Source: Obrimoposthia wandeli
Taxonomy: Eukaryota
Reading direction: 5' to 3'
Length of the DNA: 64,000 nt
Assembly (NCBI GenBank): GCA_977020255.1
Contig: CDROCS010000852.1
Span: forward strand, 310,001-374,000
The notes under the pieces were generated by a model. The model did not search any database, had not been told where the DNA came from, and saw only the letters and a list, made by a program, of their open reading frames with translations. How positions within the stretch are numbered: position 1 is the stretch's first letter; every line of letters starts with the position of its first letter. This document shows, piece by piece, positions 998 to 28,758 of this stretch. Made by a program: the position numbers and the translations under genes.

Positions 998-1710
998 AGT
1001 AGGTAGAAGGATGGAGTCTAAGCCACTTGACCCCCCCCCTTATGGTGTGACACCCTTTAGGGGGAGGCAACATCCTTCTTTGATATACCACTATGGTCGT
1101 CCATAGATTAAAGGGTCAAGTGGCTTAGTCTCCACCCTTTTTGAGATATACCACTATGAAAGGGTCAAGTGGCTTAGTCTCCACCCTTCTTTTTGAGATA
1201 TACCACTATGAAAGGGTCAAGTGGCTTAGTCTCCACCCTTCTTTTTGTGATATATCACTATGAAAGGGTCAAGTGGCTTAATCTCCACCCTTCTTTTTTT
1301 GTGATATACCACTATGAAAGGGTCAAGTGGCTTAGTCTCCACCCTTCTTTTTGAGATATACCACTATGAAAGGGTCAAGTGGCTTAGTCTCCACCCTTCT
1401 TTTTGTGATCTAGTCTCCACCCTTCTTTTTGGTTAACCACTAATTCAAAAGGTCAAGTGGCTTAGTCTCCACCCTTCTTTTTGTGATCTAGTATCCACCC
1501 TTTTTTTTGGCTAACCACTAATTCAAAGGATCAAGTGGCTTAGTCTCCACCCTTCTTTTTGTGATCTAGTCCATAATGAAAATTTAGGATAAAGTTCACT
1601 CTTATCAGTTAAGAATGTATTACGTAATCACACACATACTATTCTATGTGAAAATTTAGATCAAAGTTTTTCCTAGGTTTACACATCTAAAGAATTATGT
1701 TAAAATTTGT
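998..1710 (+). repeat. Left terminal inverted repeat of Polinton A with internal ~50-bp tandem iterons
   Basis: Reverse complement of 11952-12705. Contains about eight copies of GGGTCAAGTGGCTTAGTCTCCACCCTT. Confidence 0.95.
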
Positions 1711-1773
1711 ATTAAATCAAAAAATAATAAATAAGAAAGAAGTCAGAGAAAAATACAAAATTAAACACATTTA

Positions 1774-4700
1774 TTATGTAATTTCATAATGTCCATAAGC
1801 GCGGCTTCTATTTTTCTCGATCCAATAGCGTTTGTCATCTGATGAGCTGAGAGCAGTCTTTTGTATTATGATCGTGTATAGTTGATGATTTATTGTTCCA
1901 AACTTCTTTTGAGGTATAGTATATGCAATACCGTTTTCATACACGTCTAAATATGTTTGATGTACAACCGTTGAACCCTTAAGATTTACTCCTTTTGATT
2001 TATTATTTTCAAAGTCATCTTCAAACTTAAGTGAATAACATTTACAAAGTAAGAAAATCCATTCTTTATACATTCGTCCTTCCGATTCATCTTTAAATAA
2101 ACCTATTTTACTATTAAATTTATTAGAATATAATGGATCATTCACATTATAATTTGACGTATCTAATAATCCATCTGCAATCATTTTTGGTAACAACTGT
2201 TTTCTTAAATTAACGTTTTTACATCCCAAAAAGAATGAGTCGGTATCACCGGCAACTATATTAATTGAACAATTGAATAAATTACGATATATTTGCAAAT
2301 CATGATACTGAAGAGTATACATTCGTAATTTGCTAAGGTCTAGTACAGCTTGACCTATATAATTTGGTCGATCGAGACAAATAAAGTCTTTTCTTAATAA
2401 AACAGCTATTAAATTATCATGAATTTCAATTGTTCGTTGAAACATAGGTTTGCTAGTATATGTAATTAATTTTGTAGAACTAGTGCAGATGCGAAGATTC
2501 AATCGTTTCTTAACATTTTCAACGGTCTTTCCATACAAACTAACATTTTTAAGTTTATAAAAATCTTTGTCACATTTATTCGTTGCTTGTGATCTCATTT
2601 CTGAATTATATTCTATATATTCTGCGAATATCTTAGCCTGAGAGAATTTTACTGCTCGATGAATAATTGTTACCACTGCTCCTAAACTAACATACATCTG
2701 CAATAGTCTCCAATGAATAACATAATGACTTTTTGGCGAATGAGTCATTAAAAGTTTTTCAACTTTTTTACCAGGTGGACATTTCTTTTCTGGAGCTATA
2801 GGAAGATCATCTAAAAAGTCATGAAGGTTTTCTGGTATTACCAAGTCTACTTCCATAAAATAACCATATTCAATATGTTCCATGTTCACATTTTTCATTT
2901 CATGCAATATTTCGTTTAATTTTATATCATCAAGAATCCATTCAAAATCTCCTTTTGGTAAAGGTTGATCAAGAGCCCATCCATATAAATTATTAACATC
3001 TATATATAAAAGACTTGTTTCTTCATCTGCGACTACATGATGCTTATTGACAAATGTCATTCCTCCTCGTATACCCGAAGAAATCATGTTGTACATTTCA
3101 GGATCCTGCATCAGTTAAACCTTATGTTTTAACATTTTTAGAGCACTTGCCCAACTCAATCCAGGAATGCTAAAAAAGTTAAGTGGTTCTAAACCATCTT
3201 CACTGAGAGCTTTTCTTCTGAATGTTTGAAACACGTCAGCTAATAAATATACGTCAGTCTTTAAGTAAACTAACATATAATCCAACATATTTCTACAATT
3301 GGTTATTTTCCAAACATCTTGTGCTTTTTGATATTCAGTGTCTGTGATTTTATCATTCCATTTTACTGGTAAACTTAACTTATTCTGGAGGACATTTAAT
3401 GATGTAGCAAAATCATATGGGAATATTCCTTTGCCATCAATAAGTTTAGATGGAAAAACTGATCTTGTTAATGGAATAGTTGGTAATTTACCGGCTAAAT
3501 TTTCCAAAGATGATTGCAAAAATTGCAAAGAATCTATAAATCTCAGAGTTATTTGACCTAATCTTACAATCATGGCTTGAAACTTTTCCGTTGATTGTGG
3601 TATAATATTTATATCCCAGTCAGTAAATTTATTCAATGCATGTTTTAAAATATGATGTAAATCATAACCTCTGAGATTATGAAACACAATAGGTAAAGTT
3701 GGACGAAGTTTTCTTGATAAATTACATTCATTGCATGCAGGACCTAGATACTGTCCAGTAAAGTGATCATGATCTTTAACATATTTTTCAGATGATTCGT
3801 GACATAAATAACATTCATCGGCATTGCTAAAAGTATGAATCTCTGCATTTGTTAAGGGAATCATTACGTTTTTAAGAGCATCTAAATACCATGGCAAAAC
3901 CTTTTCTTTAGCCAAGTTCTCTATTGACTGAAGAAATTTAACTATGCAGTCATCACCAACATTATATTGATACTGGGTTTCAATTTCATCTGTACTCATA
4001 AATAACATACCAGATGCGACAGGCATATGCTTTTGATGATAACTCTCATCTGGTACTAATACAGATTCAAAATCAGCGTAAACGACATATTTCGGCGATA
4101 TAGTTTTTGACCAATCGTTGAATTTAACGTACTTATTCTTAGGCATAGTATACATTGTAGTGCTTTCTTGATTATAGTCACATAAAACTTTATGCTTTTC
4201 TAATGACAAATCGGTTTTGAAACCATGTAAACACTTTTCACACCATTTTCTGCTAATTCTAGTCGTTCCAGTTCGAATATTTAATACCCGGTTAAGACAA
4301 CTTATTCCTATATAATGAAACCGTTCCTTGGATTCTAGTAACAATAAATTAACTATAGTTCCTTCCTTCATTTTTGATTTGTATGCAACATCGATATAAG
4401 GATTCTTGATAACATCAGTTTTTGATTCTTTTTCACTTACCTCGTTGAATATGAATACATTTATTATTATACCAGGATTTTGCCGTTCAAATTTTGATAT
4501 ATTTGATATTTTCATAGGCATGTCTTCGGAATTATATACAAAATCATTTAAAAATCTTTCATAGTTGCTTGGTCTATTTCTATGTGAGTCTATTTCATTA
4601 TATTTAAGTATTGACAATATTGCATAAATAAAGCAAAGATTATCAGAGTTTAGAATATTTATGACTGCTTTAGATTTTGTAAGAGAATTTGGTGATTTAA

Positions 4701-5414
4701 TACAAATTTTAATACAAATTTTAAACAAATTTGACTATATTTAGTAACAAAAAAAGCATATTCAAGTATATTCATCAATTTCCAACCACTACCTTTTTCT
4801 GAATATTCTTCAACTTTATTTTCCATTGTATCTTCCATTTCTGAAATTATAGCATGTGAAAAAATCATTGCTCGATGCGAAGCATACCATTCTTTAGTTT
4901 CTCCATCATTCTTTTCAAACCTCATTCTAATGATGTATTGTATCTTTGCTTTTCCCATTAATTGCACTATTCTTTCTAGTTCGTTTAATAATGAAACTGG
5001 AACCTTAAGACTTACAAGATTGAGATGATCTACTTTCATGGATATCATTGAATAACTATTTTCTAATGATGTTTTAGTATGTATATTATCATTTATTTTA
5101 CGTTTTCGTGACGGAGTAGGAGCTGAAATTACTATGTTTGATGGTACATTAATTATATCAGTTCTTTTGCTTAAAGCCGGTACTTTAAATAATTTTTTCT
5201 TACTATCATTTTCATATTCTCTTAAATGACTAACATGTCGACTATAAAATAAGTTGTAATCAACATTTTCAGTGCTTAAACATTGTGGACATATGAAATA
5301 ATTTATCCTTTTGTATGAATAACCATAATATTTTTTCATTATATCATGACATACTTGAGGATTAAAATGTATATCCGAATAACAAAAATTTGAATAAGTT
5401 TTACATATACTCAT
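1774..5414 (-). pseudogene. Protein-primed DNA polymerase B (pPolB) of Polinton A, split into three ORFs by one frameshift (~4700-4730) and one in-frame TAA (3115-3117)
   Basis: ORF 4659-5414 has a CPQC..H..H finger and GSGW. ORF 3115-4728 has AVINI..DNLCF, YADFES (ExoI), an EndoVII-like CYLC..DHDH..G..C..CN, FHNLRGYD, FIDS and YLKTDV. ORF 1774-3111 has GIRGG, YIDVNNLYG, KLKNVSLYGK, GDTDS, GLFKDE and DDKR. The junction reads HKV*LMQDPEM versus TVELIQDPEM in family C. Confidence 0.95.
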
Positions 5415-5519
5415 CTGATGATATGATTGATTTGATTGGACTTGAGATATTGGTTGATTTGTATACTGAATAAAAATATATATATATATAAATACAATAA
5501 TTTAATTATTTTACTTACA

Positions 5520-5960
5520 ATGTTAACAAATATTAATTATAAAGGAATTTGCTTAGATGATGTATCTAAATTAAAATTTCGAACACGACCAGAACAATAC
5601 GTTTATAAAGCCAAAGATTATACAATACTTATTTTTAGAAATAAGAAATGCAGGATTATGGGATGTAAGGTACCTATTAAAAATATTTCTTACCCTTTAA
5701 GAATAAATATACTTGGTATTCAATCAATTACGATATGTGAAAATTTAGATCAAAGTATCAATCTATTTAAATTATGGAATGTGTTACGTAATACATGTTC
5801 ATTTGACCCTGAGGTTTTCCCAGGCTTAAGATTAAATATTTTCAATCCATTGTGTGTAAATATTTTCACATCTGGAAAGGTCGTAATTTTAGGTCTTAGA
5901 AATTTAGATTTTCAAGATCAAGTTAACGATATCATGACATACATTAAAAAAAGAAGTTGA
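5520..5960 (+). CDS. TATA-box-binding-protein (TBP)-like protein, 146 aa, encoded by the Polinton
   Basis: Two-repeat TBP core pattern: TILIFRNKKCRIMG (cf. TALIFSSGKMVCTG), IQSIT (cf. IQNMV), SFDPEVFPGL (cf. SYEPELFPGL), VNIFTSGKVVILG (cf. LLIFVSGKVVLTG). First ATG is at 5520; the track's 5436 start is a TTG upstream of the TATA-rich tract. Confidence 0.85.
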   Translation: MLTNINYKGICLDDVSKLKFRTRPEQYVYKAKDYTILIFRNKKCRIMGCKVPIKNISYPLRINILGIQSITICENLDQSINLFKLWNVLRNTCSFDPEVFPGLRLNIFNPLCVNIFTSGKVVILGLRNLDFQDQVNDIMTYIKKRS

Positions 5961-6059
5961 ATGCTCGAAATACAAATTCTCGGATATAAAATAAATAAAC
6001 AGAATGAAACAACTCTCATCTGGAGGTTTCATACAGCGACCGAATATTTTGATGTTTAA
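5961..6059 (+). CDS. 32-aa micro-ORF MLEIQILGYKINKQNETTLIWRFHTATEYFDV
   Basis: The ATG directly follows the TBP-like stop (TGA ATG). Resembles the C-terminal IRLxGY...W motif of the family-B ORFan pair. Confidence 0.3.
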   Translation: MLEIQILGYKINKQNETTLIWRFHTATEYFDV

Positions 6060-6140
6060 TAAATATTTAATAAAATGTTGTTATTGTTATAAACATGTAC
6101 TTATTCTGATATATTTATTTTATATTAATATTTATATATA

Positions 6141-6770
6141 ATGTTATTAACAAACAATTCGACTTTTCAAGTAGTAGGACCAAGTGGTAGTGGAAAAACT
6201 TTATTTGTTTGTAAATTATTAAATTCAAAAATGTTTAAAAATAAATTTAATAAAATATATTGGCATCAAGGTGGTGACGGAGAAGCTGGTTTAACAAACC
6301 AAGAATTTAATAAAATAAAAAACATTAAGATTATTAACGGTTTTGATGAAAATTGGACGACAAGACTCGTAAAAGGTGATGTAATTGTTATTGATGACTT
6401 ATATCAAGAGGCTAACAAAGAATCTGATTTTAATGATTTATTTACAAAAATTGCAAGACATAGAGAAGTTACTGTAATTTTTATAACCCAAAATTTATTT
6501 CATCAAGGAGGAAATCATCGTACTCGTAATCTTAATGTACATTATTTGATTTTATTCAAAAATCCTAGAGATCAAACAGTGATAGATTTTATTGCTCGTC
6601 AAGCATTTCCTCATAACAAGAGTTATTTAATTGATGCGTTTCATGATGCTACATCTTTACCTCATGGTTATTTATTTTTAAATTTTACTCAATCATGTCC
6701 TGATGATTTAAGAATTGTTACTGATATATTTAACCGTAATGGTATTACAGTCTATAAACAAAATAAATAA
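6141..6770 (+). CDS. A32/FtsK-like genome-packaging ATPase
   Basis: Walker A GPSGSGKT, Walker B VIVIDDL, then ARH...ITQNLF and [17 protein letters not shown], typical of Polinton ATPases. Confidence 0.95.
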   Translation: MLLTNNSTFQVVGPSGSGKTLFVCKLLNSKMFKNKFNKIYWHQGGDGEAGLTNQEFNKIKNIKIINGFDENWTTRLVKGDVIVIDDLYQEANKESDFNDLFTKIARHREVTVIFITQNLFHQGGNHRTRNLNVHYLILFKNPRDQTVIDFIARQAFPHNKSYLIDAFHDATSLPHGYLFLNFTQSCPDDLRIVTDIFNRNGITVYKQNK

Positions 6771-6790
6771 TAATAATGTTTTAAAATAAA

Positions 6791-7204
6791 ATGAATTTTA
6801 AAAAGAGTATTCTTAAACATAGTAAAAGGACAGATAAAGATGAAGTTAAAAAATTAATAAACACTGTATTATATGATCGTAATAATATTGAATTTTCAAA
6901 AAGTTTACCTTATTTTAAAACCTTAATTGACGTACCAAAAACGAATAAAATGAAAATGTTGAAATCATTTCCAATTTATGTAGTTGATGATTTAATAAAA
7001 ATTTTAAATAAAATAATTTATGGTAAAATTAAACCTGATGATAATATTTTAAAATATAAAAATTCATTAATAAATTTAGCAAATTCACGTGGTAAAATTA
7101 ATAAAAGAAACATTATTTATAATCAAAATGGCGGTTTCATATTGGCCCTACTGCCCGCTATAGCATCAGCAATAGCTAGTGTTATATCTTCAAGATGGGG
7201 ATAG
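6791..7204 (+). CDS. Basic putative virion core protein with C-terminal QNGG|F amphipathic tail
   Basis: Lys-rich 137 aa ending NQNGGFILALLPAIASAIASVISS. Homologue at 28383-28730 ends KQNGGFIGPVILVVASII. This position between ATPase and integrase is common in Polintons. Confidence 0.7.
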   Translation: MNFKKSILKHSKRTDKDEVKKLINTVLYDRNNIEFSKSLPYFKTLIDVPKTNKMKMLKSFPIYVVDDLIKILNKIIYGKIKPDDNILKYKNSLINLANSRGKINKRNIIYNQNGGFILALLPAIASAIASVISSRWG

Positions 7205-7303
7205 TTGTCTTAATAACGAAAATTATAATAATATTAAATAATTACATTCTTTCGTTTTATACAAACATATAAACAGTTTAAAATATATTTAACTTTTATA
7301 ATA

Positions 7304-7477
7304 ATGGGGATAAACAATACAAAGTTGTCTAACTTAATTATAAATTTTAATTCTTCATGCTGCAATGGAAAAGATTTGGAACAATCCAGAAGATCCAGAC
7401 GGTTATACAGGGTTAGAAAAATTGACAAAAAGAGTCAAACAATCAAAAACAAACACACAAAAATGGTTAAGAAATGA
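7304..7477 (+). CDS. 57-aa MG...CC ORF overlapping the integrase start in another frame
   Basis: MGINNTKLSNLIINFNSSCCNGKDLEQSRRSRRLYRVRKIDKK... is below the ORF-track cutoff. Homologue MGANPSLPKFKFSFYSNCCNGEDMVQ... at 28759-28977. Confidence 0.65.
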   Translation: MGINNTKLSNLIINFNSSCCNGKDLEQSRRSRRLYRVRKIDKKSQTIKNKHTKMVKK

Positions 7478-8391
7478 ATTATCATATAGTCTGAATAAAC
7501 CTTTAAGACGTAAATTCCCTACTAGATCATATAAAACTAATGGTATTAATTCGTTATGGCAGATGGATTTAATGGAAATGATTCCTTATTCTTCAGTAAA
7601 TAACGGATTCAAGTATATTTTAACTTGTATTGATGTATTTAGTCGTTTTGCAAGGGCAGTTGGTGTTAAATCAAAATCAGGTATTGATTTATTACATGCA
7701 ATAGAATCTTTAATTGTTGATGATGTACCAGTAAATATTCAAACCGATGAAGGTAAAGAATTTTTTAATTCACATGTTAAGAAATTATTTAAAACTGAAA
7801 ATATCAATCATTATTCAGTATATTCTCAATATAAAGCTGCAGTAGTTGAAAGATTTAATAGAACGTTAAGAGAACGGTTAAAGAAATATTTTACTAAACA
7901 AGGTAATAAGAAATGGGTGAATGTATTACCAAAAATTATTTATGCTTATAATAATTCTAAACATAGAGGTTTAGATGGTTTAAAACCTGTAGATGTAAAT
8001 AATAAAAATGAATTTGATATTTTGTTGAAACAAAATCTAAAAAGAAAAGAAAGTTAAATCTAAATATAAAATTGATGATTATGTTCGAATATCAAAAATA
8101 AGTACAAGTCCATTTATTAAAAATTTTAATCAAAATTGGAGTGATGAGGTTTTTCAAATTCATGATATTAATTATAAACAAAATCCAATAATGTATATTT
8201 TAAAAGATATTGATAACGTCATCATCAAAGGAAAATTTTATAAACAAGAGTTACAATTAATTGATAAACCTAAACTATATCGAATACAAGAAATTTTAGA
8301 AACTAAAGGTCGTGGTAAGAATAAACAATATTACGTAAAGTGGCACGGATACTCTGAACCTTCTTGGATATTTGCTTCTCAAATTGAATAA
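7365..8391 (+). CDS. Retroviral-type DDE integrase with C-terminal chromodomain; +1 frame break at 8041-8057
   Basis: WQMDL, IQTDEG and VERFNRT form the DDE triad. The +1 frame from 8053 reads VKSKYKIDDYVRISK...NWSDEVF...FYKQELQ...YRIQEIL...YYVKWHGY (chromodomain). Confidence 0.92.
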
Positions 8392-9404
8392 TGTCAAAAT
8401 ATATTATTTTACCTAGTAATAGTTGTCCAAGTACTCAACCTAACAATACAGCCAATCAATTTACTGTAGATTGGGAAAACTCTCTAAATTTAGATGGTGA
8501 ATGGGAGGTTGCCTTGACTGAATTTGTATTTAATTATACTCCTTTAACAATACAAACTAATTCAAAAATACTTTATAAAACGGAAAAGATAGAAATGAAA
8601 ACTTTCGATGTATCTTTTGCAATTTTAAATGGATTAATTTTTAATAATTTAAATACTGTTTTCAATTTCAAAATTACAAAGGATCAAAAATTAGAAATAA
8701 GTACAATTAACAGTATTCATCGAATGTTGTTAAAATTCGAAACTTTAGAAGAATCAAAAATTATAGGTTTTAATGAAATACAAAAAATTTCTAGTCATGT
8801 TATAACAAGTGATGAAATTGTTGACATAAATAAAAATATTCATGCTAAAATGAGAATTACAATTTATTATTTAGCTGAATATGAATACGAAATAAAATTT
8901 AATCAAAATTATTTGATACAAGATAGTTCTTCATTATGTAATATTATAGCCAGTAAATGTAATGAAATTTTTAAAAGCTGTAATATAGATTCAGACGGAT
9001 TATTTGATATTTTATTAAAGAAAAATGTAAAATCAGTTTTATTTGACGAAAAACTTGCATCTTTATTAGGTTTTAATAATGTTTTCTTTGAGAAACGAAT
9101 TAAAGGTTTTCAAAAACCAACACTTTCTAGCTCATATAATCAAATGTATATTTATACTAGTTTAACAGATTCTGTCTTAGTAGGATCTGATTATGTTCCA
9201 CTGTTAAAGTCTATTTGGTTAAAATCATTAAAATATCGATATGGAGATGTAGTAAATGTTAAAATTGATAATCCAATGTACTTGAAAATGAGAGATTCAA
9301 GTATTAATAGAATCGAGGTAAATATACGTGATGATTCTGGTAATTTAATTCCATTTTCATATGGAGCAAAAACTAGTTTAACTCTTCATTTACGTAAAGT
9401 ATAA
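8391..9404 (+). CDS. Minor capsid (penton-like) protein
   Basis: Polinton mCP pattern: N-terminal LPSNS...NTANQF...L.G.WEVALTE and C-terminal MYIYTSL...LVG...VPLLK...PMY...INRIEVNIRDDSG..IPF..G...LTLHLR. Confidence 0.8.
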   Translation: MSKYIILPSNSCPSTQPNNTANQFTVDWENSLNLDGEWEVALTEFVFNYTPLTIQTNSKILYKTEKIEMKTFDVSFAILNGLIFNNLNTVFNFKITKDQKLEISTINSIHRMLLKFETLEESKIIGFNEIQKISSHVITSDEIVDINKNIHAKMRITIYYLAEYEYEIKFNQNYLIQDSSSLCNIIASKCNEIFKSCNIDSDGLFDILLKKNVKSVLFDEKLASLLGFNNVFFEKRIKGFQKPTLSSSYNQMYIYTSLTDSVLVGSDYVPLLKSIWLKSLKYRYGDVVNVKIDNPMYLKMRDSSINRIEVNIRDDSGNLIPFSYGAKTSLTLHLRKV

Positions 9405-9441
9405 ACAATATAAATATATTTAAAATATAAATATATATAAA

Positions 9442-9845
9442 ATGAATACATCAATTATAAAATTTTATAGCAAAAGTCAACAGGGCGGTGAACTTCCCTA
9501 TTTCATTGGTAAACAATATGGATCTGGTTGGTATCAAACTATTTCTAGATTAGCTATTCCATTTATTAAAAAGTTGGTTTATCAGCAGCTACAAGTGCTG
9601 CCAATGTAATTGGTGAAACGGTAGGAACTGCGTTAACAAATCCAAAAAACATAATTTCATCTCTCAAAGAAAATACAATCAAAGAAGTCAAAACTTTGAT
9701 TCCAAAATTAAAAAATAATGCTGTTGAGAGTTTAAATAAAGTCGCAAATTGTGTTGAACAAAATGGAAAGGGTCTTAAACGTAAAAGAAATAATTTAAAT
9801 AGTATAAACAAACGTCTTAAAGGTACTATTTTCCAAAATGACTAG
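9442..9845 (+). pseudogene. Putative protease-cleaved membrane-lytic/core protein upstream of MCP; 1-nt frameshift at ~9570
   Basis: MNTSIIKFYSKSQQGGELPYFIGKQYGSGWYQTISRLAIPFIK, continuing in the -1 frame as KVGLSAATSAANVIGE...QNGKGLKRKR...IFQND. The break lies in an A5 run (A6 restores the frame). Confidence 0.65.
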
Positions 9846-11058
9846 TATAAAATCTGAATTGTGTATTTTCGATAGACCACTACCTCAAGTAGTGATTGAA
9901 AATTCAAGTTTTGAAGAAATATTTCCAATCAATTCAATTACTGGAAAAAATTTAAATGACATAGAATTTAATATTCATGCATCTGAAGAAGATTATCTGG
10001 ATTTGAATGATACTTTGTTAAATATTAAATTAAAAGTTGTAAATGAAGATGGTACTGATTTAATGAAAGATAGCGATGTAACTCCAGAGAATTACATGTT
10101 TCAAACTTTGTTTAGAGATGTTATTCTAACACTTAATAATGTAAAGGTTGAAGGAGGAAATGGAACGTATACTCATAAGGCTATATTCGATACTCTTTTG
10201 AATTTTAGTAGTGATACCAAGTATACTAACCTTGAATGTTCCGGGTATGATGATGATGCAGAAAATCGTAAACAATGGATTAGTGAATCTAAAATATTTT
10301 CATTGTGTAATTCAATTAGATTAGATTTCTTTGATCAACCAAAATATTTGATTCCAGGGATTAATGTTCATTTGAGATTTATGAGAAATCAGCATAATTT
10401 TTCGCTCTATTCAGAAACTTCAAAACCAATTATTCAAATTCTAGATGCTAGATTGTATGTTAGAAGAGTAAAAGTTGATTCTTCAGTAATGATTGGACAT
10501 CAGTTAGGTTTGCAAAGTCAGAATGCAGTTTACCCAATTAGAAAAACTCAGTTAGTAACATATTCAATTCCTCAGGGTTCTTTGGAACTTAATAAAGATC
10601 AAATATTCGGAGACTATCGTTTACCCAAGTTCATTTTGATTGCTTTCAAAGATACACCTCAGGGTGGTAAGGAATACAAAGTTAAATCTTCTACGTTCAA
10701 TACATTTAATGTTTCAACAATATCATTAGCTAGAAATACAGATTATCGAGAAACTTATAATCTAGATAATAACAATTTTTCATTAGCATATATGCAGTCA
10801 ATTATTCGAAATATGAATATTTTAGATAAAAACGTGAATAATGGTATCAGATTTTCTGATTTTAAATCAGGAAGTTCGATTTTCACTTTTCTATTAGCAC
10901 CAGATTTTGATATAAACACTACTCAAGTGCCTAAAACTGGTAATTTAAGACTTGAAATTAGATTTAATTCTCCTTTGACCGTTCCAACAAGTGTTTTGAT
11001 TTACGGAATATTTGATTCCGAAATTCAGATTACGAAAAATAAAACTGTGATTGTATGA
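9838..11058 (+). CDS. Major capsid protein (double jelly-roll, Polinton PY/hexon-like), intact 406 aa
   Basis: SELCIFD.P..QVVIE...EEIFPINS, IEF.I...E.DYLDLNDT, FFDQPKYLIPG, A.YPI, LPKFILIAF and GNLRLEIRF..PL motifs typical of Polinton MCP. Confidence 0.9.
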   Translation: MTSIKSELCIFDRPLPQVVIENSSFEEIFPINSITGKNLNDIEFNIHASEEDYLDLNDTLLNIKLKVVNEDGTDLMKDSDVTPENYMFQTLFRDVILTLNNVKVEGGNGTYTHKAIFDTLLNFSSDTKYTNLECSGYDDDAENRKQWISESKIFSLCNSIRLDFFDQPKYLIPGINVHLRFMRNQHNFSLYSETSKPIIQILDARLYVRRVKVDSSVMIGHQLGLQSQNAVYPIRKTQLVTYSIPQGSLELNKDQIFGDYRLPKFILIAFKDTPQGGKEYKVKSSTFNTFNVSTISLARNTDYRETYNLDNNNFSLAYMQSIIRNMNILDKNVNNGIRFSDFKSGSSIFTFLLAPDFDINTTQVPKTGNLRLEIRFNSPLTVPTSVLIYGIFDSEIQITKNKTVIV

Positions 11059-11431
11059 AGTAAGCTTATTGTATATTATATTCTTTATTTAAATTAGTAC
11101 TTTAGAAATTCATAAATCCGGAAAAATATTATTGAATAACAAATTTAATGGAGTATATTCATTGGATAAAATTCCATCATTAAAACCCGGAGGTTACATT
11201 ATCAATACTCATACTTCAAATCTACCAGGCGAACATTGGATAGCAATATTCGTTGACAGATTCGAGATTCGAGTGTTTGATCCTTTTGGATTCTATTATC
11301 CTGCAAAGTTGGTGTCTACACTTGAAAAAGAAAACATTCCAGTCTACTATAATCGAGTTAAATGTCAGAATCCATTAACTAAAAACTGCGGACCTCTGAG
11401 TCTTTTATGGTTGAAACTTCAACACAAATAA
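11055..11431 (+). CDS. Adenain-like cysteine protease with a predicted 38-nt intron (11060-11097)
   Basis: Spliced product MNTLEIHK...GVYSLDKIP...INTHTSNLPGEHW...FDPFG...CQ.....CG has the catalytic His, Asp and Cys. The ATG overlaps the MCP stop (ATGA). Confidence 0.85.
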
Positions 11432-11898
11432 TTTTAAGTATAAACAAATATATCATTATAGATTTTCATTTTATTTTTTCAAATGGCTTTTATATGAATG
11501 TTTTATTGATAATAATGGAGAATATATTCTTGTCTTGTTCATTTCATTACGTGTTTAAAAATCAAATACCATGGAGTAGTTTATCATTTACAGTTAAAAG
11601 AAAAAATCTATATTTGATAAATCATCATCATCAGTTATCCTGGTTTGAAGGTGAAAGCTCTGATATTCATATTGATGATGTTGAAACAATATTCTATGTT
11701 ATGGATTCTATTGATGGAAAGAAAATTAATTTAGTGAAACGAATGTTTCCAAATTTGAGAATTGTGAATTATAATAAAAGTTTCAAAAATTTAAAGAAAA
11801 TGCCAAAAAATATTCGATGTCCGTTTAGAAAACACGGAAAACATTGTGCTTATTTGAAATGTTTTTCTCTATGTATTGATTATGTAAATTGTATATAA
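11407..11898 (+). CDS. Accessory protein resembling a DEDD/Maelstrom-like nuclease-fold ORF seen in invertebrate Polintons
   Basis: IIIDFH...FK..IPWSSLS...KRKN.YL..HHHQLSWFEG...CPFRKHGKHCA pattern, recalled from Polinton accessory ORFs and not verified. Confidence 0.45.
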   Translation: MVETSTQIILSINKYIIIDFHFIFSNGFYMNVLLIIMENIFLSCSFHYVFKNQIPWSSLSFTVKRKNLYLINHHHQLSWFEGESSDIHIDDVETIFYVMDSIDGKKINLVKRMFPNLRIVNYNKSFKNLKKMPKNIRCPFRKHGKHCAYLKCFSLCIDYVNCI

Positions 11899-11951
11899 AT
11901 ATATTTATTAAGGATATTTTATTTTAATATATAATTTATGTTATTTAAATA

Positions 11952-12705
11952 AATTTTACCATAATTCTTTAGATGTGTAAGCCTGGAAAAACTTTGATCT
12001 TAATTTTCACATAGAATAGTATGTGTGTGATTACGTAATACATTCTTAACTGATAAGAGTGAACTTTAGTCTAAATTTTCACATAGAATAGTGTGTGTAT
12101 GATTACGTCATACATTCCTTAACTGATAAGAGTGAACTTTATCCTAAATTTTCATTATGGACTAGATCACAAAAAGAAGGGTGGAGACTAAGCCACTTGA
12201 CTCTTTGAATTAGTGGTTAGCCAAAAAGAAGGGTGGAGACTAGACCACAAAAAGAAGGGTGGAAACTAAGCCACTTGACTCTTTGAATTAGTGGTTAGCC
12301 AAAAAGAAGGTGGAGACTAGACCACAAAAAGAAGGGTGGAGACTAGATCACAAAAAGAAGGGTGGAGACTAGATCACAAAAAGAAGGGTGGAGACTAAGC
12401 CACTTGACCCTTTCATAGTGGTATATCACAAAAAGAAGGGTGGAGACTAAGCCACTTGACCCTTTCATAGTGGTATATCTCAAAAAGAAGGGTGGAGACT
12501 AAGCCACTTGACCCTTTCATAGTGGTATATCACAAAAAGAAGGGTGGAGACTAAGCCACTTGACCCTTTAATCTATGGACGACCATAGTGGTATATCAAA
12601 GAAGGATGGAGTCTAAGCCACTTGACCCCCCCTAAAGGGTGTCACACCATAAGGGTATATGTTGCCTCACCTCCGGTGGGGGGGGTCAAGTGGCTTCTAC
12701 CTACT
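11952..12705 (-). repeat. Right terminal inverted repeat of Polinton A
   Basis: Mirrors 998-1710. About six full and several truncated GGGTGGAGACTAAGCCACTTGAC units, plus an extra ~73-bp tandem duplication near 12000-12148. Confidence 0.95.
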
Positions 12706-13289
12706 ATGGTGTATGGTATTTTGAATTGGATTATGAATTTTAAGCTTGTGACAAACAATGTAATAATTTTTGTCAAGTTTATGTGATAATGGATTTTGAT
12801 GAAAATTTTGAAGAATCCAGAGACAAAGACAAAACCAGTTTTATTGGTAATGAAGATAGTATAATGTGCTTCAATATTTTTCAAGAGTTGATGAAAATTT
12901 AGGTTATACTCATATTAAAAATATGTAATAATCAATCAGTTTTAAATTTATAACGAAAACGTTTTAAAAAGTTGTTTAAAATTAAACTTTTACACATTTA
13001 AAAATAATTACCTGTATTTTTCATAATTTACTATTTATTTTATGGACTGTATATATTACTTTTGCTTAGAAATTTCATTTTTACAAATATTTGATTTAAA
13101 TATTCTATTCAACTCTGAGATATGTAATCTGTCAACTCCCACTGTGTAAATGTGGATATAGCACAATCATATCAATCTAACAAAAAGAACATTAAAAAAA
13201 TTAATATATTGAAATGGAATGGAATGCTTCTGAATCTAGCTTAAATTAAAAACATTTTAAAATTTTGAATAAACGTGTTTTGAAAAGCC

Positions 13290-14557: not shown

Positions 14558-17500
14558 CATTGGCTACCCAGTCGTGACTATGTGCTTTCAGTTGAAGAAC
14601 TACGTTTCGCACAAATTCCGCTTGGTGAGTGTCATTTCTGGTCGTACGCGAATTGTCACCGGTTTGTCAAGGTCCAAAGACACGATTGTATGGCCACAGG
14701 AAGTTGGGTGACCTTTATTTTACTATCCAAGTGACGCAGTTTGTTTTCGTGTCATTTTAACAATTTGACAAATCGATTTGCACACTAATTTGCTATATAA
14801 TAATGACATTTTAAAATTCCTTAAAAATAATATTAGTATTAATTATATCATTTTTAAAATTATGAATTTTTATTAACTCTTTGAATCCATTTAATATTGT
14901 TCAAATGCAAAGGTTACCTAGACTCTTTTTTAGAATATTTTTTTTTAAATAAATATATAGTTAGTAATAACTATGCTAATTACAATTTAAGGTCATTTGG
15001 TACAATGCAAAAGTTTGGGATAGCCAACTCAAAGTTTTTATTCAATATAATACGATATACCTGTCGCTACTCAACAGTGATAATCGTCAAAATTGTACAT
15101 CACATATAATAAATTAATAATAAAAGTATAAAACTGAATAAACTTTTGTTTAAAATATGTTATGAATAATATGTTTAGAAACAGATTTTAAAATCAATGA
15201 TTATACCTGAAATCAACGGTGATAATAACATAAATGCATACAGACACACACAAAGAAGGTGATGTAGCCTGTATTTTTTATTATGGAAAATATTCAATAT
15301 AACAGTGATACCTAAAATGAACGATGATAGAATTTTTCAAGAAATTAACGTTTCGTGAACTTAAAATGATGTTACTCTAATTATTTAACTTTCGTAAAAT
15401 AATCAATATTTTTAGGATAAACTTTTTTCTTAAAAGTAATAATGAAGCCGTATTTTATTTAATTCAAAGGAAATTTATATGAATATAATGCTAATTTCGA
15501 TAATAATGATGAAAATAATCCAGAATGTAGTGGTATTTATGACAAAATGTGAAAGACAAGATATACTTCAACTGTAAAATATTTTGCATAAGATACGTAA
15601 GATATGTAATTATTAGATTTTGGCACTTTGCAAATATTTGTTATATTACCTTTATCATATTTGTATCTTTATCGATCTACTTACTTTTTTTATCCGTACT
15701 GAGACTTAAAAAGCTGCCTGTTAAAAATTTTTAAAAATAACGCAATTTTATTTATGCAAAATGAATTTACATTGCTGCATAAAAGTCATTAAAATACTAA
15801 TGCTACAGATTTAAACAGCTTTGCTATTTCGTTTTTTGTTGTTGAAATATTTAATTACTTATACTTAATAGTAGTTTAAATTATATATATTTTTAAAGTA
15901 TGAAAACTAAATAAAGAAGAATTATGCGTTTTTTAATCATTTACAATGTCAATGTAGAAATTATAAAGCTTACTTTAAAGTAGAAATTATAATTGAAGTT
16001 TAGCACTATATCTAACAAAAATAGACTAATTTATTCTATTAACATTTTACATACTTGTTAAATATTTGTTAAATATTTGTCCCTCTTTTAGTTTTATATT
16101 TATACTTTAAAAAAATGTGTTAATTTTATATGAATTTCTATATGAACTAATTTTTGTGTTTGTTGAATTTAGAAAAAGGAAATTTATTTAGTAGAGTTGA
16201 AGTTATAACATAAATAATTCCTCAAATGTTGTAAAATTAATAAAAATTAATTTCGTCTGATACAGAGGAGGCCAACCTTTTCCATGACATGGGCTGCATT
16301 TGCATGTCTGAAGAACCACATCTAACCTCTATGATTTTCTTAAATAAATAATTCCTTAACATTTTAAAATAAAAATATTTAGTACTCCCAAAATACGGAG
16401 AACAGTTTTAGTGACTTATTTGTCCCTGGTGATTTAGTGACAACAGAGGGAGATCATTTGGTATACTTGATGCAACAACACGCAGATTGTTCTCCATTTT
16501 CATGTCCGTGATCCTCGTGCGTTGACAAGATTGAATCAAATACATTACAAATCCATTTTCCTGTATTTCCTGAATGAAACTATCAGTTTGGATATCAAAT
16601 TAAATTTCTAAATTCCAGACTTAGTTTTCTATATTTTGAGAGAAGTTATCTGCTGTATAATCCCGATCTGTATTGCAGCGGCGCCAGACTGAAGTAAGGC
16701 GGATCAACCAGTTCTACTACGAGCTGCTGGAGAAGGCTATTCCGGAAGAGCTGCGCCAGTACAGCTACGTGCCGGACAATGACCGAGCCTCTGTGCCGGA
16801 CTCTGTAGCAGAGAACTCGTCCTCTACTACCTCTTCATCGCAAGGCAACAAGCAGGAGGTAGCAGTTACTCATAGCAACAGCGGTGGTGGCAGTGTCAAC
16901 AAGACTGTGGTGCTCAAGAAGAAGGAGGTGCTGTCCGCAAATAGTAGTGCCCTCGTGGTGTCTTCTGGGCAATTACCTTCGCATCAGACCAATGGTCGAG
17001 TCAAGCATCAGAAACCGGTGAGAGACGATGATGATGTCATTTACTGACCCATTTAACAATAGTGTAAGTGAGTAAAATTATGTAAAATTTATTTTTTAAA
17101 TGCACGCAATACATTTTGGATTTACATAAATACATACATTTATGTTAGATCGAGATAAGTTTTGCACACAGTAAATGATATATCTGGAGTAGATATTGGC
17201 GCTCATGTATTATACATTTGTTAAACAAACGTAATAGACTGGAAGATCTATAATTCTTGTTTAATTAAACTGTTTTTCATAAGAAGCCAACAAGTAGATA
17301 CACGTGTCACTGATATCGCCAAGGTAATTAAATCATAACTAAATGATGATCAGACGCCAAAAGAGTGGTATTCCAACCTCAATCTATTATAATCAACCTG
17401 AAAATGTCAACACATAAATTTATGAAATCTTAGCAAAGCCATATTTAAACATGTATATATATGAATATTTTTAATAATGTATTTATACTTCTACAAATGA

Positions 17501-20500
17501 TTAACATTTTAAGTTTAATATTGTTCCTGACCATTATTTCTGAAAATTTGAATTTTTATGATTTCCACCAATGACTTTACTTGTAAGTAACTTAAAAACA
17601 CTTTTTTTAAAAGTTGTCACATGAGACAGAACTTTAAACTTTGGCTTCTTCTTTTACTTATTAATTGGTCTATAAGGTCAACTAGATTAAGGTAATTCAG
17701 ATAAATCTCAAACACATAAATGGCAGATATTGAAATAAAATTAATCAAAAAAACATTACTCAGCTAGAATATAATATACAATTTTATTAGCTTGTCAATT
17801 CCTTAATTATACATAATACCAGTGATAGAACCAAAAAATATTAGTACATTTATTTTATTGTCGTTTATATGCTTTAAATTATTTACATAATAGAAAGTCT
17901 TTTATTGAGTTTTTTGTGTGTTTCACTTATTTTGCTAATCCCAACTTTATTAAAACGTATTACTGAACTGTACAAAATGTAAAGTATAACATAGGATAAT
18001 TTAGTTTACTTTTTGATATTAAGCAACAAAAACGTATCGTTTACTTAAGATTAAAGGTGAAGTAATTTAAAACTTCATCATATATTCTTTTTCGTCTTAC
18101 GTAGAATTTGAATTATGTTATAAAAATATTTTCATATTTAGCAAATTCATTTTGTCTTTGGCAAATTGGCCTTAAATGTAATTTATTTGAAATTTCCCTA
18201 AGAATTAATATAATTTTTAATTTTTTACCAGTGTCTTATGTGACTTTCTAAATTTGGGAAACTAAATCTCGCTAAATTAGAGGTTTCAAATCGAAAAGTA
18301 ATGTTCAACGTAAAATAAAATACGTTCTTTTAAAATGATTCTTAAACTGAAGTTGTCAAATTCTACGGATAAAAATTAAATAGGAGTCGACAATAGGTTT
18401 ATAACTCTAAATAATCTTAATACAACATTTGAATCAAAGTCTATAGTACATTTATTTTGATGTTTTTATTTTGTGGAATTACCCTAACATTCTCCCTACG
18501 CAGAATCACCAACTGCCGGATGTAGTAATGGACAGCAGTAGCAACCACAGTCAGCAGCACCCAGTCAGTTCCCAATCACCTGTCATCCTCAGTCACAGCA
18601 TCCATGCATTTCTGAGTACCCTCCCATCATGTCCCTCCTCCGGTAGTGACCTCCAGCCCTCCACCGTGACCTCCAATGACCACCACAGTACCCAGTTACA
18701 TCCTACAATCAACTCGTCAGTGGTCACAGACCTCTCTGCGACCAATCACCTCCTTGAGGACCACCAACCAGGACCAAATAAAGTGCAGCATCAGCAGCAG
18801 AAATGCAAGCGCAAACCTGCTTCCACGCCGGTAATCAATGGCAACATCCACGAATCCTCAGATAAGCTCCACTGCGAGTCGACAAAGAACAGTCGCGACG
18901 ATGCCATATCTAAGTAAGACACTGTAAAGGGAAAATTTGCTGTTATAAGGAAATTTAGTTGAGAAATTCAATAAACTTTCTTGATAACATTTCTCAGGGG
19001 TGTCAAACTCATTTCAGCCGGTTCATTTTTCTTACACAAACATTCACTACAGCAAACCGAATTTAGTCTTTATATCGTTTTAAGTGAAATTACATAACAT
19101 TAATATAGTTACATTCACTATGAAGACATTATAATCAAGCTAATACATAATTATATGAAATATCCAAAAGTAATAATTAACCCTTGGGCATCTATTGAAG
19201 GTTGATTACTCGGTAAGCTCATTTTAACCTGAATAAATCAACAATTGAGAAACGTTTTAAAATAAAATTTCATATATACCTAATTTGAAATTTTCCTATC
19301 AGACAAAGTCGATAATTTCTTATAAAAGCAATAAAAATCGAATCTATATAAAACGTTTCCATATTAGTGTTATGTTACTTAGTAACTAGACGGATTTTTT
19401 TCTAAATTAAGTCTTGGCCTCTTTAAACTTTATCTTCTTTTATTTATTAATTGTTAGCGGTTAAAATAAATTAGATACATTATATATAGATATATAGATA
19501 CATTTTAGTTTCGTCAGTTAAAAGTAATAAAGTTTAAAATTTATATAATGTTAAATTTTATTAAATTGTTATTCATTAACTCATTTATTAATAATACAAG
19601 TGATATTACTAAATTTATTGTTATTTTCAAATTAACTATGTTAGAAGACCGAAAAACAGGCATAACTAGATTGAATAAAATAATCTGCATTCATTGTTGT
19701 GCTGAGGATATATATATATATATATATATCATTATTGAGCAATGCAAACCTATCACACATTCACTAGCATAAAGATTACCTAAAATCCGTAGGTCCATAA
19801 ATTACAGTTTACATGATCTATTACAGGAGGTAACTACTTATCTTATTCAGTGGGTTTTGATAATATTTAAAAGCTTTTCTAACTTTCTGAAAAGTATTTT
19901 CAAATAATGGAAATTTAGTTTGCCGAGTTCTTAAGATGTAGGCCTTGAAAATAATTTAATTAGATAAGAAAAACAATCTATACATTTCATATCGTTTGCA
20001 GTCAGGTAACTCCTTATGGTTATGAACATATAAAAGAGAAAATTTTATTGTTTACTTGACTATTCTAACTTTTCTTTAGAGTGTTGAGAAGATGAAGTTA
20101 TGGATGGTGTAGCTTTAATTCTTAGTATGGAGAAGTGCATCTTACAACATGGTTCGTAGCAGTCAATGTAAATGGAAAGTGTAAAAAACAAGTAAAGCTA
20201 CAGAAGATGTACGAGTTAAATTAATATTATAGATCATATTAAATTTCACTTAGAAGAACTACAGGATAAAAAAATTCTCAGCAGACACTTAGTGGATTTT
20301 CATTAGCATATTGTTATACCGTTAATAAATTGTTCTTTTCCCTTAGTTAGGTTTTTTATTTTCTACGTCAGCTAAAATATATTTAGTCAATGAAATGTTA
20401 GGGATTGCTACAAAACATGTTTAAACCGTTGTCTCAGGTTCGAAATCCAGCTACGCCGTCTGCGGTCTGAGCTGACACAGCAACGTAAGTCCGAATCGGA

Positions 20501-22724
20501 GCTGCGCAACCAGGTGCAGCAGAGCAGCAGTGCCGAAGCAGCGCTGCGCTCCGAGACGCGACAAGCCCGGGTAGAGGTACAAGCAATGCAGACACGACTC
20601 AGCAGTTTGACTGATCGGGCTGCCCGTGAAAAGCAGGCATGTCAGACAATGGAGCGGCGGCTTGCAGAAGAGAAGAATGCCCGACTGGGACTGACCGCTC
20701 GTCTGGAACAGGAGCGCCGACAAAGATTGGAGGACGGCGAGGAGAGACAGCGCGCCATACAGAGTGCTGTGGACGCTGCTGCCAGGTGATTAACATGGAA
20801 ATTATCCGAGGAATTTATAATGATTCAGAATAACTGTTACAACTTCAATTCTTAATAATTCATGAAATACTTTTATTTTGCATGCTTGCATTATCATAAA
20901 CTATTTATTAAAAATCAATAATAAAAATTAGTCTTATAAATAGCATTCAGGATATTAATCTTGCATTCACCAAGATTATCAAACAGCGTTTTGTTTCGCA
21001 GGTCTGCAGATTGCTGTGAATTGTGCCGGAAGCAGCGACGAGAGCTAGAGTCGGAGCTGGCTGCACTGAGGCGGGAGGTGCCGGCCACAGAGGAGCGAGT
21101 TACCACGCTGCTAGCCCAGACCGTAGAGCACGCTGCTCTGGCTCTCAGTGCTGGTGAAGTGCGTGAGCTAAGTGGCAGAATCTGTGCCCTCAAGGACGAG
21201 AACCTACACCTGACTGAGCAGTTGCGCGAGCTCAACAAGATGAAGCAAGAGCTGCTCACCTCATATCACAGCAGTCAGCTTGAGATCAAAGATCTGGACT
21301 GTGAGTGTTTCAGTGCCCACATTCTAGTTTAGGCTTCTAATCTCAAGCAAATTAACATACAATTAGAAAATGTCATTTTTAGTAAGGTTCGAAATGTTAT
21401 TTTAAATATTCTTAATATGATATGTTAGATTCATAATATGGGACGATATTTCTTTCAGTGTCCAGATTTAACATGTTTTGCTGGAGACAAATAAATGAAG
21501 GGTACAAATTAAAAGTCATGTACAGTCAGGATTTTTCGAAAAATGTCGCCAATGCATTATATTTCTTCTATTAAATATTGAAACCTTTTTTGCTGATTGA
21601 AATATATACTTTCAATATCCATTATCAAAATTGGACATTTTAAATCAAATCGGGCAGTTACTTGAATGATTCCATTAAATTGAATGTGTGATTAAAAGTT
21701 ATAGAAAAAGAAATGGAATGTATCAATCACAACAAGTTTCATGCAGTTGTTATTTATAATTTTTAATTTGTATGGCTTAAGAATATTTTTCACGAACTCA
21801 AAAAATCGTTCATTGTGTGCCTCATCAGCAAAAAAAGATAAAGCCGACTGCTCAAAAATGTGTGTGTTAATGGTAGCAACTTTAGGATAAGATATATAAT
21901 ATGATTGATCTGCATGGTCAAAACATGGATGATTCTTTCTACATCGAGTTTCTTCAAAGGATGCACCTGAAGTTTGTTCACCTCCCTCAGAGTATTGGAT
22001 GGAAGAATTCTGTCTGGATTCGGCCGTATGTTTTAGGATAAATTTATTATGTCGAGGTCACGAAACGTTGTTCACCCGGCACGTTTTCCGCCTGACTTTA
22101 ATCTAAAAGAGTTCTGCTATTTTTAAATTTCGAATCTTTGTGAATTCAGCAGAATTTCCTAGTCGAAAGTGAATTAAAAGTTTCCTTTTTGGTGTTTGAG
22201 TCTTGAATCGATTTTTTTCGTTAAAAGTGTAATAATTTGGCAATGTAATTTATAATCATGCTGTAAATAAATATGATTGTTATTTTGGAATTATGACTTA
22301 ATTGTAAATGATCGAAACTTTTCGAACAACCCAAATACAACATCTATTCTAATTCGTCACAATTGATATATTGCAAATAATTTCATATCTTGCCTCAACA
22401 TTTACTAATTTACCAGATATTCTAAAGCGGAAGAACTATCAGATAATGGAGCTGCAGAGCAGGCTAGAAGAACTGGGCCAGCAACAGCAGCTGTACATGA
22501 ACTCCGGCGGCTCTCCATATGCGGTGACGTCATCGGCCTCGACTCCGCCTCCTCAGTCATCAGCAGTGTCTACAATGCCCTCGTCGCCGTTCTACCATCA
22601 CACCAATGCTAGCGCGTCGTCAGTCGCCAACTCTGTGGTGTACTCTCATCAACAGCAGCAACAACAGCAACACAATGGCTCCCAGAGACTGTCCAGCAAT
22701 TCTCCCCTCTACATGCAGCACTGA
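14558..22724 (+). CDS. MACO1: Macoilin (TMEM57) orthologue, 3' six exons: 14558-14624, 16679-17017, 18504-18913, 20438-20785, 21002-21300, 22417-22724
   Basis: IGYPVVTMCFQLKNYVSHKFRL|RRQTEVRRINQFYYELLEKAIP matches macoilin IGYPVVTLGF..KSYVSYKMRLRKQKEVQKENEFY..LL..ALP. Coiled coil DAISK|FEIQLRRLRSEL. All junctions are GT-AG with consistent phases (0,0,2,2,1). The N-terminal exons were not found in the window. Confidence 0.92.
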
Positions 22725-27126: not shown

Positions 27127-27378
27127 ATGAAACTCGTAAATATAAAATATAAAGGAAGAATAGAATATAATATTTTGTACTTATCATTCAATGAATGGAA
27201 GCCAAGACAATATGGGAAAAGGTTTGATAATTTCACAGTTGTTATTTTTTCCTCAGGTTAATTTTTATTTTATTTTTCATATTGAATTCTTTTAGGATTG
27301 AAAAATTTTGATGATCCAGACATTGTTGATTTGATTTTAGAAAACATATCTTATTACATCTTGTTATCTTTTCTATAA
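27127..27378 (+). pseudogene. TBP-like gene of Polinton B (shortened or interrupted)
   Basis: MKLVNIKYKG...KPRQY...DNFTVVIFSSG aligns to family A MLTNINYKG...RPEQY...KDYTILIF. Downstream ILLGLKNFDD matches VILGLRNLD. A 39-nt GT-AG segment (27257-27295) lies between. Confidence 0.6.
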
Positions 27379-27406
27379 ACAAACCCGTTTAAACTTATTG
27401 TTTTGA

Positions 27407-27679
27407 ATGAATAATACTATAAATAGAGACAATGAAGTGGATCGGCTTGCCGACGAAATATTTTCTGGAAAGATTAGGTGTAAAGAAATTTTATCAGAAT
27501 TAAAAAATAATGATATAACAAGAGATAACATTGAAATATTGGTTAGATCACACGTTATTCGAGAATTTAGAAATCGTACACAAATAAATAAAATTATAGC
27601 CAAATATTCATTAATTAATTTTTGTATTTCATCTACAATAGCTCTAACATTGTACATTTCAATAAGGAAACTTCTATGA
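27407..27679 (+). CDS. 90-aa ORFan with hydrophobic C-terminus
   Basis: Open frame ending YSLINFCISSTIALTLYISIRKLL; no recognisable family. Confidence 0.4.
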   Translation: MNNTINRDNEVDRLADEIFSGKIRCKEILSELKNNDITRDNIEILVRSHVIREFRNRTQINKIIAKYSLINFCISSTIALTLYISIRKLL

Positions 27680-27699
27680 TAATATAAACAATATTAAAA

Positions 27700-28200
27700 A
27701 TGAAAGAGTATATGCAATGGAGCCAAATAATAACCAAAACAAAAATTTGCAAGTTGAAGGGAATAACATATATTGAAGGATTTGATGCAACTTGGTGTGA
27801 AAAATTGAAAAAAGAAGATGTAATAATAATTGATGATTTGTATCAGGAAGCTAACAAGGAATCGGTCTTTAATAATTTATTTACAAAGATTGTAAGAAAT
27901 CGTGAAGTTACAGTTATATTTATCACTCGAAATCTTTTTCACAAAGGAGGTCACCATAGAACAAGAAATCTTAATGTACATTACTTAGTTTTATTTTAAA
28001 ATCCTATAGATCAAACAATTGTTAATTTCGTGGCCAGACAGGCATTTCCCCAAAATAAGAACTTTCTAGTTGATTCATTCCATGATGCTGCTAAACAAGC
28101 ACATGGGTATATATTTATTTACTTTAACAAGCTTGTCCAGATGATTTAAGTGTTTTAACCGACATATTTAATTCTAAGGGAGTAACTGTTTATAAACAAA
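27700..28200 (+). pseudogene. Packaging ATPase of Polinton B, 5'-deleted and frameshifted
   Basis: VIIIDDLYQEANKES...[14 protein letters not shown] is nearly identical to the family A ATPase; Walker A is missing. Confidence 0.9.
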
Positions 28201-28382
28201 TAGAGAACAATCATAAAAGATAAATTTATAATGCCTTTTAAGAAGTTGATAGTAAAACGTAAAACAAAGCCTAATAAATCAAAAAAAGAATCATTAAGAA
28301 AAAAGAAGTGAAAAAATTAATCAAATCTGTAGTTAGAAATAAAAAAAAACTTGAATGGCTTCAAATATAAACAATATTCAAA

Positions 28383-28730
28383 TTGAACCTTTTTATTAAA
28401 ATGAAGAAAATACAAAGAAGCATACCCTATTTTAAAGCTTTAGTCAAAGCCTCTTCTCAAAAGAAAATGATTATTCTTAAAGGATTTCCATTTTTTATTG
28501 CAGATGATTTATTGGAAGTTTTGTATAATATAGTTTTGGGTCGAGTAAAAGTTAGAAATCGGAAAAATATATTAAAGAAATATAGAAAAACTCTTCTAGA
28601 TATTGCTAATGTAAAAAGTAAAAAAAGGAAACGAAATATTATTCTTAAACAGAATGGTGGTTTCATAGGGCCTGTTATTTTAGTAGTTGCTTCAATTATC
28701 ATTAGTATTATAGCTGCGACACGATCATAA
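28383..28730 (+). CDS. Basic core protein homologue (QNGG|F tail), Polinton B
   Basis: SIPYFKALV...GFPFFIADDLLEVL...KQNGGFIG aligns with 6791-7204. Confidence 0.75.
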   Translation: MNLFIKMKKIQRSIPYFKALVKASSQKKMIILKGFPFFIADDLLEVLYNIVLGRVKVRNRKNILKKYRKTLLDIANVKSKKRKRNIILKQNGGFIGPVILVVASIIISIIAATRS

Positions 28731-28758
28731 ACAATTATTTATAAAATCAGCTAAAGAT

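Follow-up and report, generated by a model that had tools for sequence, protein, structure and literature searches.

We asked how the protease gene of a Polinton/Maverick element is begun, whose reading frame holds no ATG from 11093 to 11431 of the window, the 64,000-nt stretch of DNA analysed here. The initial annotation had proposed that a 38-nt spliceosomal intron supplies the missing start, and its coordinates, the ATGA overlap with the capsid gene, the TAA met on unspliced reading and the ATG-less protease frame were all exact when the sequence was re-read. The predicted start codon is ATG at 11055-57, which shares bases with the TGA stop of the capsid gene (11056-58); it is the sole ATG between 10911 and 11060. 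Exon 1 (11055..11059, + strand) consists of this codon and the two bases AA at 11058-59, is cut in phase 2 and overlaps the capsid stop. The putative GT-AG micro-intron (11060..11097, + strand; 38 nt, 84% A+T) then opens with GT at 11060 and runs GTAAGC...ATTAG, with GTAAG as donor, TTAG as acceptor and the AG at 11096-97. Reading from 11055 without splicing gives ATG AAG TAA, that is, M-K-stop. With a phase-2 end to exon 1 and a T at the start of exon 2, the spliced N-terminus would be M-N-T-L-E-I. Its Met sits 19 residues ahead of the conserved G-V-Y, the spacing seen in the homolog P0018 (M-N-T-I-E-V).

These signals are those of a U2-type intron: a GT(A/G)AG donor, a YAG acceptor and a phase that restores the frame. 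With both strands scanned, the 11.7-kb element contains the pattern ATG-NN-GT[AG]AG a single time, at 11055, and the chance expectation for its presence 30-60 nt from a given acceptor is ~8e-4. The branch-like word TTTAT is weak (YTNAY-like), its A lying at 11087, 10 nt from the 3' end of the intron. An Rfam scan of 9000-12800 returned one match only, outside the intron and below the gathering score (E 0.67), and when the element was compared by BLASTN with the remainder of the window, nothing matched 11060-11097 that could be an introner copy.

The protease lies in a Polinton of family A (998..12705, no strand assigned), an element of ~11.7 kb with terminal inverted repeats (TIRs), a target duplication and genes for pPolB, packaging ATPase, integrase and, presumably, capsid. 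The target duplication is 6 bp long with one mismatch (ATAGTG/ATGGTG, 5/6), and the TIRs are ~85% alike over 649 columns. Pfam recognised DNA_pol_B_2 (E 5.5e-15), rve (E 1.8e-10) and Chromo (E 4.5e-4), the polB and integrase genes both being in pieces, as well as the ATPase through Pox_A32 (E 7e-6). The capsid gene (9838..11058, + strand, within an ORF at 9808-11058) stands directly 5' of the protease. It is 49-58% identical to a family-B copy at 30234-30991, which breaks off near 31000, and contained no Pfam family; we take it to be the major capsid protein (MCP) gene from its position and resemblance, and MCP, PY, PZ and PW serve here as labels. Lesions in polB include a stop at 3115-3117 (- strand) and a frame break near 4700; the gene at 9442-9845 is broken, and so is the gene after the protease. 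This copy is thus decaying, and its protease may no longer be expressed. An intron-like stretch in one decayed copy could be accidental, so relatives were needed as a test, and since tblastn found no second protease copy in the window, the comparison across copies was made on relatives from outside it.

Several other features of the two Polinton families were noted. A TBP-like gene lies inside the family A element (5520-5960, + strand; Pfam TBP, E 3.5e-12), whose genes follow a TATA-like word, and it may encode a promoter factor of the element's own. In both families the integrase reading frame moves to +1 at the same A-rich motif (8041-8057 in family A, 29481-29515 in family B, both + strand), which separates the part with the chromodomain; DNA identity between the families is ~70% there, and the break may be read as a shared lesion, an assembly error or a programmed frameshift. 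The TIRs (1020-1600 and 12150-12705) hold tandem arrays of ~42-nt and shorter units whose copy number differs between the ends. The gene after the protease (11483-11898, + strand) is in pieces near its start and gave no Pfam match; we presume a resemblance to a small nuclease-type accessory gene. More decayed Polinton remains are found at 27600-31050, 31247-36841, 48293-48436 and 62188-62481: a family-B core cut short within its capsid gene, fragments of polB on either strand, and one fragment each of PY and the ATPase gene. The polB, PY and ATPase fragments lie partly within introns of a Wnt gene.

Exon 2 (11098..11431, + strand) encodes an adenain-type (clan CE) cysteine protease, as indicated by Pfam, profile and fold. 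The match to Pfam Peptidase_C5 (E 0.0034) falls under the curated cut-off, and the profile match to the adenovirus proteinase 1avp reached E 6.6e-5. Four residues are invariant in alignment A1, namely His (codon at 11234), Asp (11279), Gln (11366) and Cys (11387), corresponding to H48, D63, Q92 and C99. The structure model (pLDDT 92.4) places a helix at residues 3-17 and matched 1nln at E 3.7e-6, with a TM score of 0.77 and a probability of 1.00. By its catalytic set and its predicted adenain fold, the protein is a member of clan CE.

To follow the intron beyond this copy, we used a set of 126 homologs, made up of the best 120 of 617 matches to a profile built on the close clade, five from another protein search and P0022. 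Judging from their form, many of them look like gene calls made without splicing. Such calls translate through introns, so splice signals would leave amino-acid traces. After hand reclassification of P0021 to the intron type and of P0235 to the Met-nearby class, 60 of the 126 had Met at the start position and 10 nearby, 30 were of the intron type, 18 had an internal start and eight were unanchored. All 30 homologs that extend past the start position without Met carry Ser there, and no other residue class was found, whereas Ser occupies position 2 in 1 of the 60 Met-start proteins. This is expected of an acceptor read through, because YAG|Y gives the codon AG|Y. The residue preceding Ser was I (10), F (6), N (5), C (3), Y (2), S (2), V (1) or L (1); K, E, Q, M and W never occurred there (0/30, against a background of 16.5%; P 0.0045 with relatedness ignored), an absence that a YAG acceptor demands. 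A weaker test, for residues encoded by NNY codons only, gave 15 of 30 (P 0.057).

The donor leaves a trace as well. Depending on intron length modulo 3, ATG-RA|GT would be read as M-K-Y, W-S or [Y/H/N/D]-E-V, and all ten of the long read-throughs (at least 14 residues) carry one of these, with all three frames represented: W-S in P0005, P0020 and P0003; E-V in P0022, P0171, P0174, P0183 and P0193; and M-K-Y in P0191 and P0248. No more than 4 of 10 matched in any of 20000 shuffles. The pattern had first been noticed on four proteins, and the six that were added once it had been fixed, scored with a stricter pattern, all showed it (6/6, against a maximum of 2/6 in 20000 shuffles). Among distant homologs with long extensions, taken as a control, 1 of 21 did. 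The ten proteins share 41-72% mutual identity and so are not near-copies. The intron lengths that they imply are 35 nt in P0171, 37 in P0020, 38 in both P0174 and P0183, 40 in both P0003 and P0005, 41 in P0193, 42 in P0191, 45 in P0248 and 47 in P0022, and the interiors differ between relatives. The DNA of the relatives was also sought: bacterial and archaeal genomes yielded a single match, 20 residues long (E 2e-4) and judged to be chance, and phage records gave none.

Conserved boundaries around a free interior, a further mark of U2-type introns, are thus seen indirectly, only as translated read-throughs (10/10 donors, 30 acceptors, 35-47 nt). The initial annotation had predicted that GT and AG, but not the interior, would be kept among copies, and the 30 acceptor and 10/10 donor traces in outside relatives agree with this; among close relatives, an ATG at the position of 11093 combined with missing splice sites was not encountered. 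At 41-72% identity, retention of the position and the splice signals supports the proposal that a spliceosomal intron supplies the protease start. As a conserved feature, the ATGA overlap was rejected. It is present in the window, but it is not general, as in two relatives (P0020 and P0174) a capsid-like C-terminus and stop fit another frame of the read-through, and the capsid gene would end ~27-29 nt before the ATG. The capsid-end scores of these two were 49 and 53, against shuffle maxima of 37 and 35 (30 shuffles each), and four of the six read-throughs tested gave no signal of a capsid-like end.

We then placed the intron on a tree of the protease (118 rows, 115 columns, quick search), from which the N-terminal two positions and the extensions had been trimmed and the eight unanchored rows and P0021 left out. 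All 30 intron-type rows in the tree (29 homologs and the window) fall on a single branch (SH-aLRT 92), together with 16 of the 18 internal starts and five Met starts. The opposite side comprises 65 Met starts and two internal starts, and intron-type rows are absent from it. Within the intron branch, four of the five Met starts begin M-N-T/S, the predicted spliced start, and P0168 is 72-74% identical to intron-type proteins; these Met starts are either spliced transcripts or intron losses. The tree being unrooted and the branch unstarred (92), a single gain in the ancestor of this protease clade, followed by loss in a few members, is the simplest reading of these sequences rather than a proven one.

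The host is a triclad-like flatworm, since a Wnt exon in the window best matches triclad Wnt2-1 (Dendrocoelum 65%, Schmidtea 59%) and other host exons match at 54-87%. The host genes are a macoilin gene (14560-22724, + strand) and the Wnt2-type gene (41718-63161, - strand), with coding exons far richer in G+C than the introns. Six host introns could be delimited, of 187, 216, 1116, 1524, 2054 and 6598 nt, the shortest in the Wnt gene, and none of them is a first intron. Introns of Opisthorchis peak at 37 and 90 nt; its micro-introns, which make up 34% of all introns, lie close to the 5' end and show consensus-like sites, and micro-introns occur in the free-living Macrostomum as well (PMC6530080). 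In Gyrodactylus the modes are near 32 and 58 nt, and the short mode dominates introns 1 and 2 (PMC4040987), while small introns of Schmidtea centre on 57 nt (PMC4978528). With flatworm modes of 32-57 nt, 38 nt is short for a planarian and ordinary for the phylum. The initial annotation had called the intron far shorter than those of the host, a contrast that is not supported: the six host introns delimited here are internal ones, and flatworm micro-introns cluster 5' and peak at ~32-37 nt (parasitic) or 57 nt (Schmidtea). Mavericks are reported as expanded in Dugesia (10.64898/2025.12.11.693146).

Taken together, the sequence evidence argues that the protease is probably a two-exon gene, in which a U2-type micro-intron, 35-47 nt long across the lineage, divides a 5-nt coding exon from the body; its splicing is probably constitutive. 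Transcription would take place in the host nucleus and probably start from a TATA-like site of the gene's own, within the end of the capsid gene. A candidate for this promoter of a separate protease mRNA is the word TATAAACA at 10911..10918 (+ strand), inside the capsid coding end, which precedes the protease ATG by 144 nt with no ATG between. The word occurs nine times on the + strand of the family A core and never on the - strand, 20 times in the window against 10.1 expected by chance, and 35-53 nt ahead of the starts of the ATPase gene, the gene at 9442 and the capsid gene. The host spliceosome would then remove the intron as an ordinary 5'-proximal flatworm micro-intron, essentially constitutively, and the first AUG (11055) would open the protease frame. 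The splice sites would be kept under selection, most simply because losing any one of them kills the gene, and the intron possibly also aids expression or export.

Two further observations concern these flanking signals. TATAAACA, which we take to resemble a forkhead site as well, is strand-biased before most genes of both Polinton families (6088-11446, + strand, and 27374-28373). An AATAAA at 11038-11043 (+ strand) overlaps the end of the capsid gene and precedes the protease ATG by 17 nt; were it the capsid poly(A) signal, cleavage would fall in the exon 1/intron region.

The same intron could instead act as a regulated switch, as the initial annotation had suggested for virion maturation, with retention or splicing gating the protease by cell type or stage, for instance through retention in neoblasts and late splicing. 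Here, RNA left unspliced yields only M-K-stop, and the intron has been kept across a deep clade. Alternative splicing in planarians consists mainly of intron retention, which accounts for 56.2% of events and shows enrichment in stem cells (PMC4978528). One might also speculate that the AATAAA at 11038 sets 3'-end processing of the capsid mRNA against splicing. However, AATAAA is common in A+T-rich DNA such as this, the donor is near-consensus, interior sequence and length are not conserved, and the introns retained in neoblasts are usually longer than others (PMC4978528). Furthermore, the introns implied in P0191 and P0248 (42 and 45 nt), two of the ten relatives, are in frame and free of stops, so that retention would add 14-15 residues and leave the gene on. 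The maturation switch is thus unsupported, and we regard regulation of this kind as unlikely. In its fuller form, the ancient micro-intron of a whole Polinton lineage, probably one of flatworms, would be a cell-state gate, retained in stem cells (a transposon mode) and spliced when particles are made. We consider this equally doubtful; were it true, it would tie the lineage to hosts whose spliceosome removes introns of 35-47 nt.

Constitutive splicing also has to be weighed against readings without a cis-spliced intron. Translation might begin at a near-cognate ATT at 11093, one base off ATG and located at the Met position, or at an AUG brought by a trans-spliced flatworm leader joined at the AG; such a leader does contain an AUG whose use has been discussed (PMC6530080). 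Yet 19 of the 30 relatives have F, N, C, Y, S or V at the position of the ATT, mostly without a near-cognate start codon, a phase-0 join at the AG at 11097 or 11105 would be out of frame, and neither start explains a donor trace in 10 of 10 relatives. Both starts were rejected on these grounds and seem very improbable. The intron might also be an artefact of decay in a dead copy, where the loss of the start codon, or a small insertion, happens to look like an intron. The broken polB, 9442-9845 and post-protease genes and the divergence of the TIRs would fit this, and GeneWise labels insertions in fossil Mavericks as 'introns' (PMC8097293). But the catalytic residues of the protease are intact, and the acceptor trace in 30 relatives and the donor trace in 10/10 at 41-72% mutual identity largely refute the idea, to which we give hardly any credence. 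A capsid-protease fusion ('Hexain') made by frameshifting or by splicing out of the capsid frame, akin to the potential Hexon-Adenain -1 frameshift fusions proposed for some adintoviruses (10.1101/2024.03.25.586562), was rejected on frame grounds as extremely unlikely: the donor-like GTGATT (11047) and GTATGA (11053) that precede the capsid stop are both phase 0 and out of the protease frame, and TAA at 11040-42 closes the -1 frame, leaving four codons with no slippery run evident by eye.

If the two-exon gene is real, the intron departs from the intronless state reported for Polinton core genes. It would be one of the rare cases in which a virus-like element gained an intron long ago while its outgroups are intronless, so that the gain and the losses can be dated, and it implies that a virion gene has been selected, across a deep clade, for nuclear transcription and host splicing. 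This bears on whether animal Polintons express their particle genes. Reads across the splice junction would reveal protease expression with no risk of confusion with genomic DNA, and existing planarian RNA-seq can be searched for them. Because annotation based on ORFs truncates or misses such a protease, it can make intact members of the clade look defective. The 35-47-nt size also offers a clue to the hosts of many environmental Polintons that are unassigned.

No such Polinton intron is described in the papers that our literature search covered. Keyword-selected passages of PMC8502044, 10.1101/2023.08.22.554363, PMC8363768, 10.1101/2024.03.25.586562, 10.64898/2026.07.28.741253, PMC3671162 and PMC13644364 do not mention one, and the text of the adintovirus supplement (PMC8502044) up to its sequence files contains no 'join', 'intron' or 'splic'. 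The putative spliceosomal micro-intron that cuts this core virion gene at codon 2 throughout the Polinton lineage is, on the indirect evidence of conservation, well supported as a real feature, and it is apparently unreported.

In its general build the element resembles known Polintons/Mavericks (eupolintoviruses, 'adintoviruses'), with TIRs, a 6-bp duplication, pPolB, an rve integrase with chromodomain, the ATPase and an adenain-type protease next after the presumed capsid gene; it differs in the clade-wide intron in a core virion gene. Intronless core genes are a reported, not a defining, property of Polintons. Intact vertebrate Mavericks are reported as intron-free (PMC8097293), as are the core genes of a nematode Maverick (10.1101/2022.07.12.499685), and the family A protease contrasts with the former. 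Spliceosomal introns within Polinton-like proviruses are known from dinoflagellates, where introners enter eupolintoviral elements (PMC12166617). Those, however, are insertions of intron-generating transposons into viral elements, whereas the protease intron has a fixed codon position and a diverged length and interior and is common to a deep protease clade. Adomaviruses splice their late transcripts (10.1101/341131), and they and adenoviruses resemble the present element as nuclear dsDNA viruses with an adenain whose late transcripts are spliced, at acceptors just upstream of late-gene starts. Their leaders join upstream of an intact ATG (shown for LO4-LO7), in contrast to a micro-intron that splits the coding sequence at codon 2. 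The flatworm micro-introns are alike in size (37 nt in Opisthorchis, ~32 nt in Gyrodactylus), 5' position, consensus-like sites and otherwise weak signals; unlike them, the protease intron sits in a mobile virus-like element and lies under the 57-nt mode of Schmidtea.
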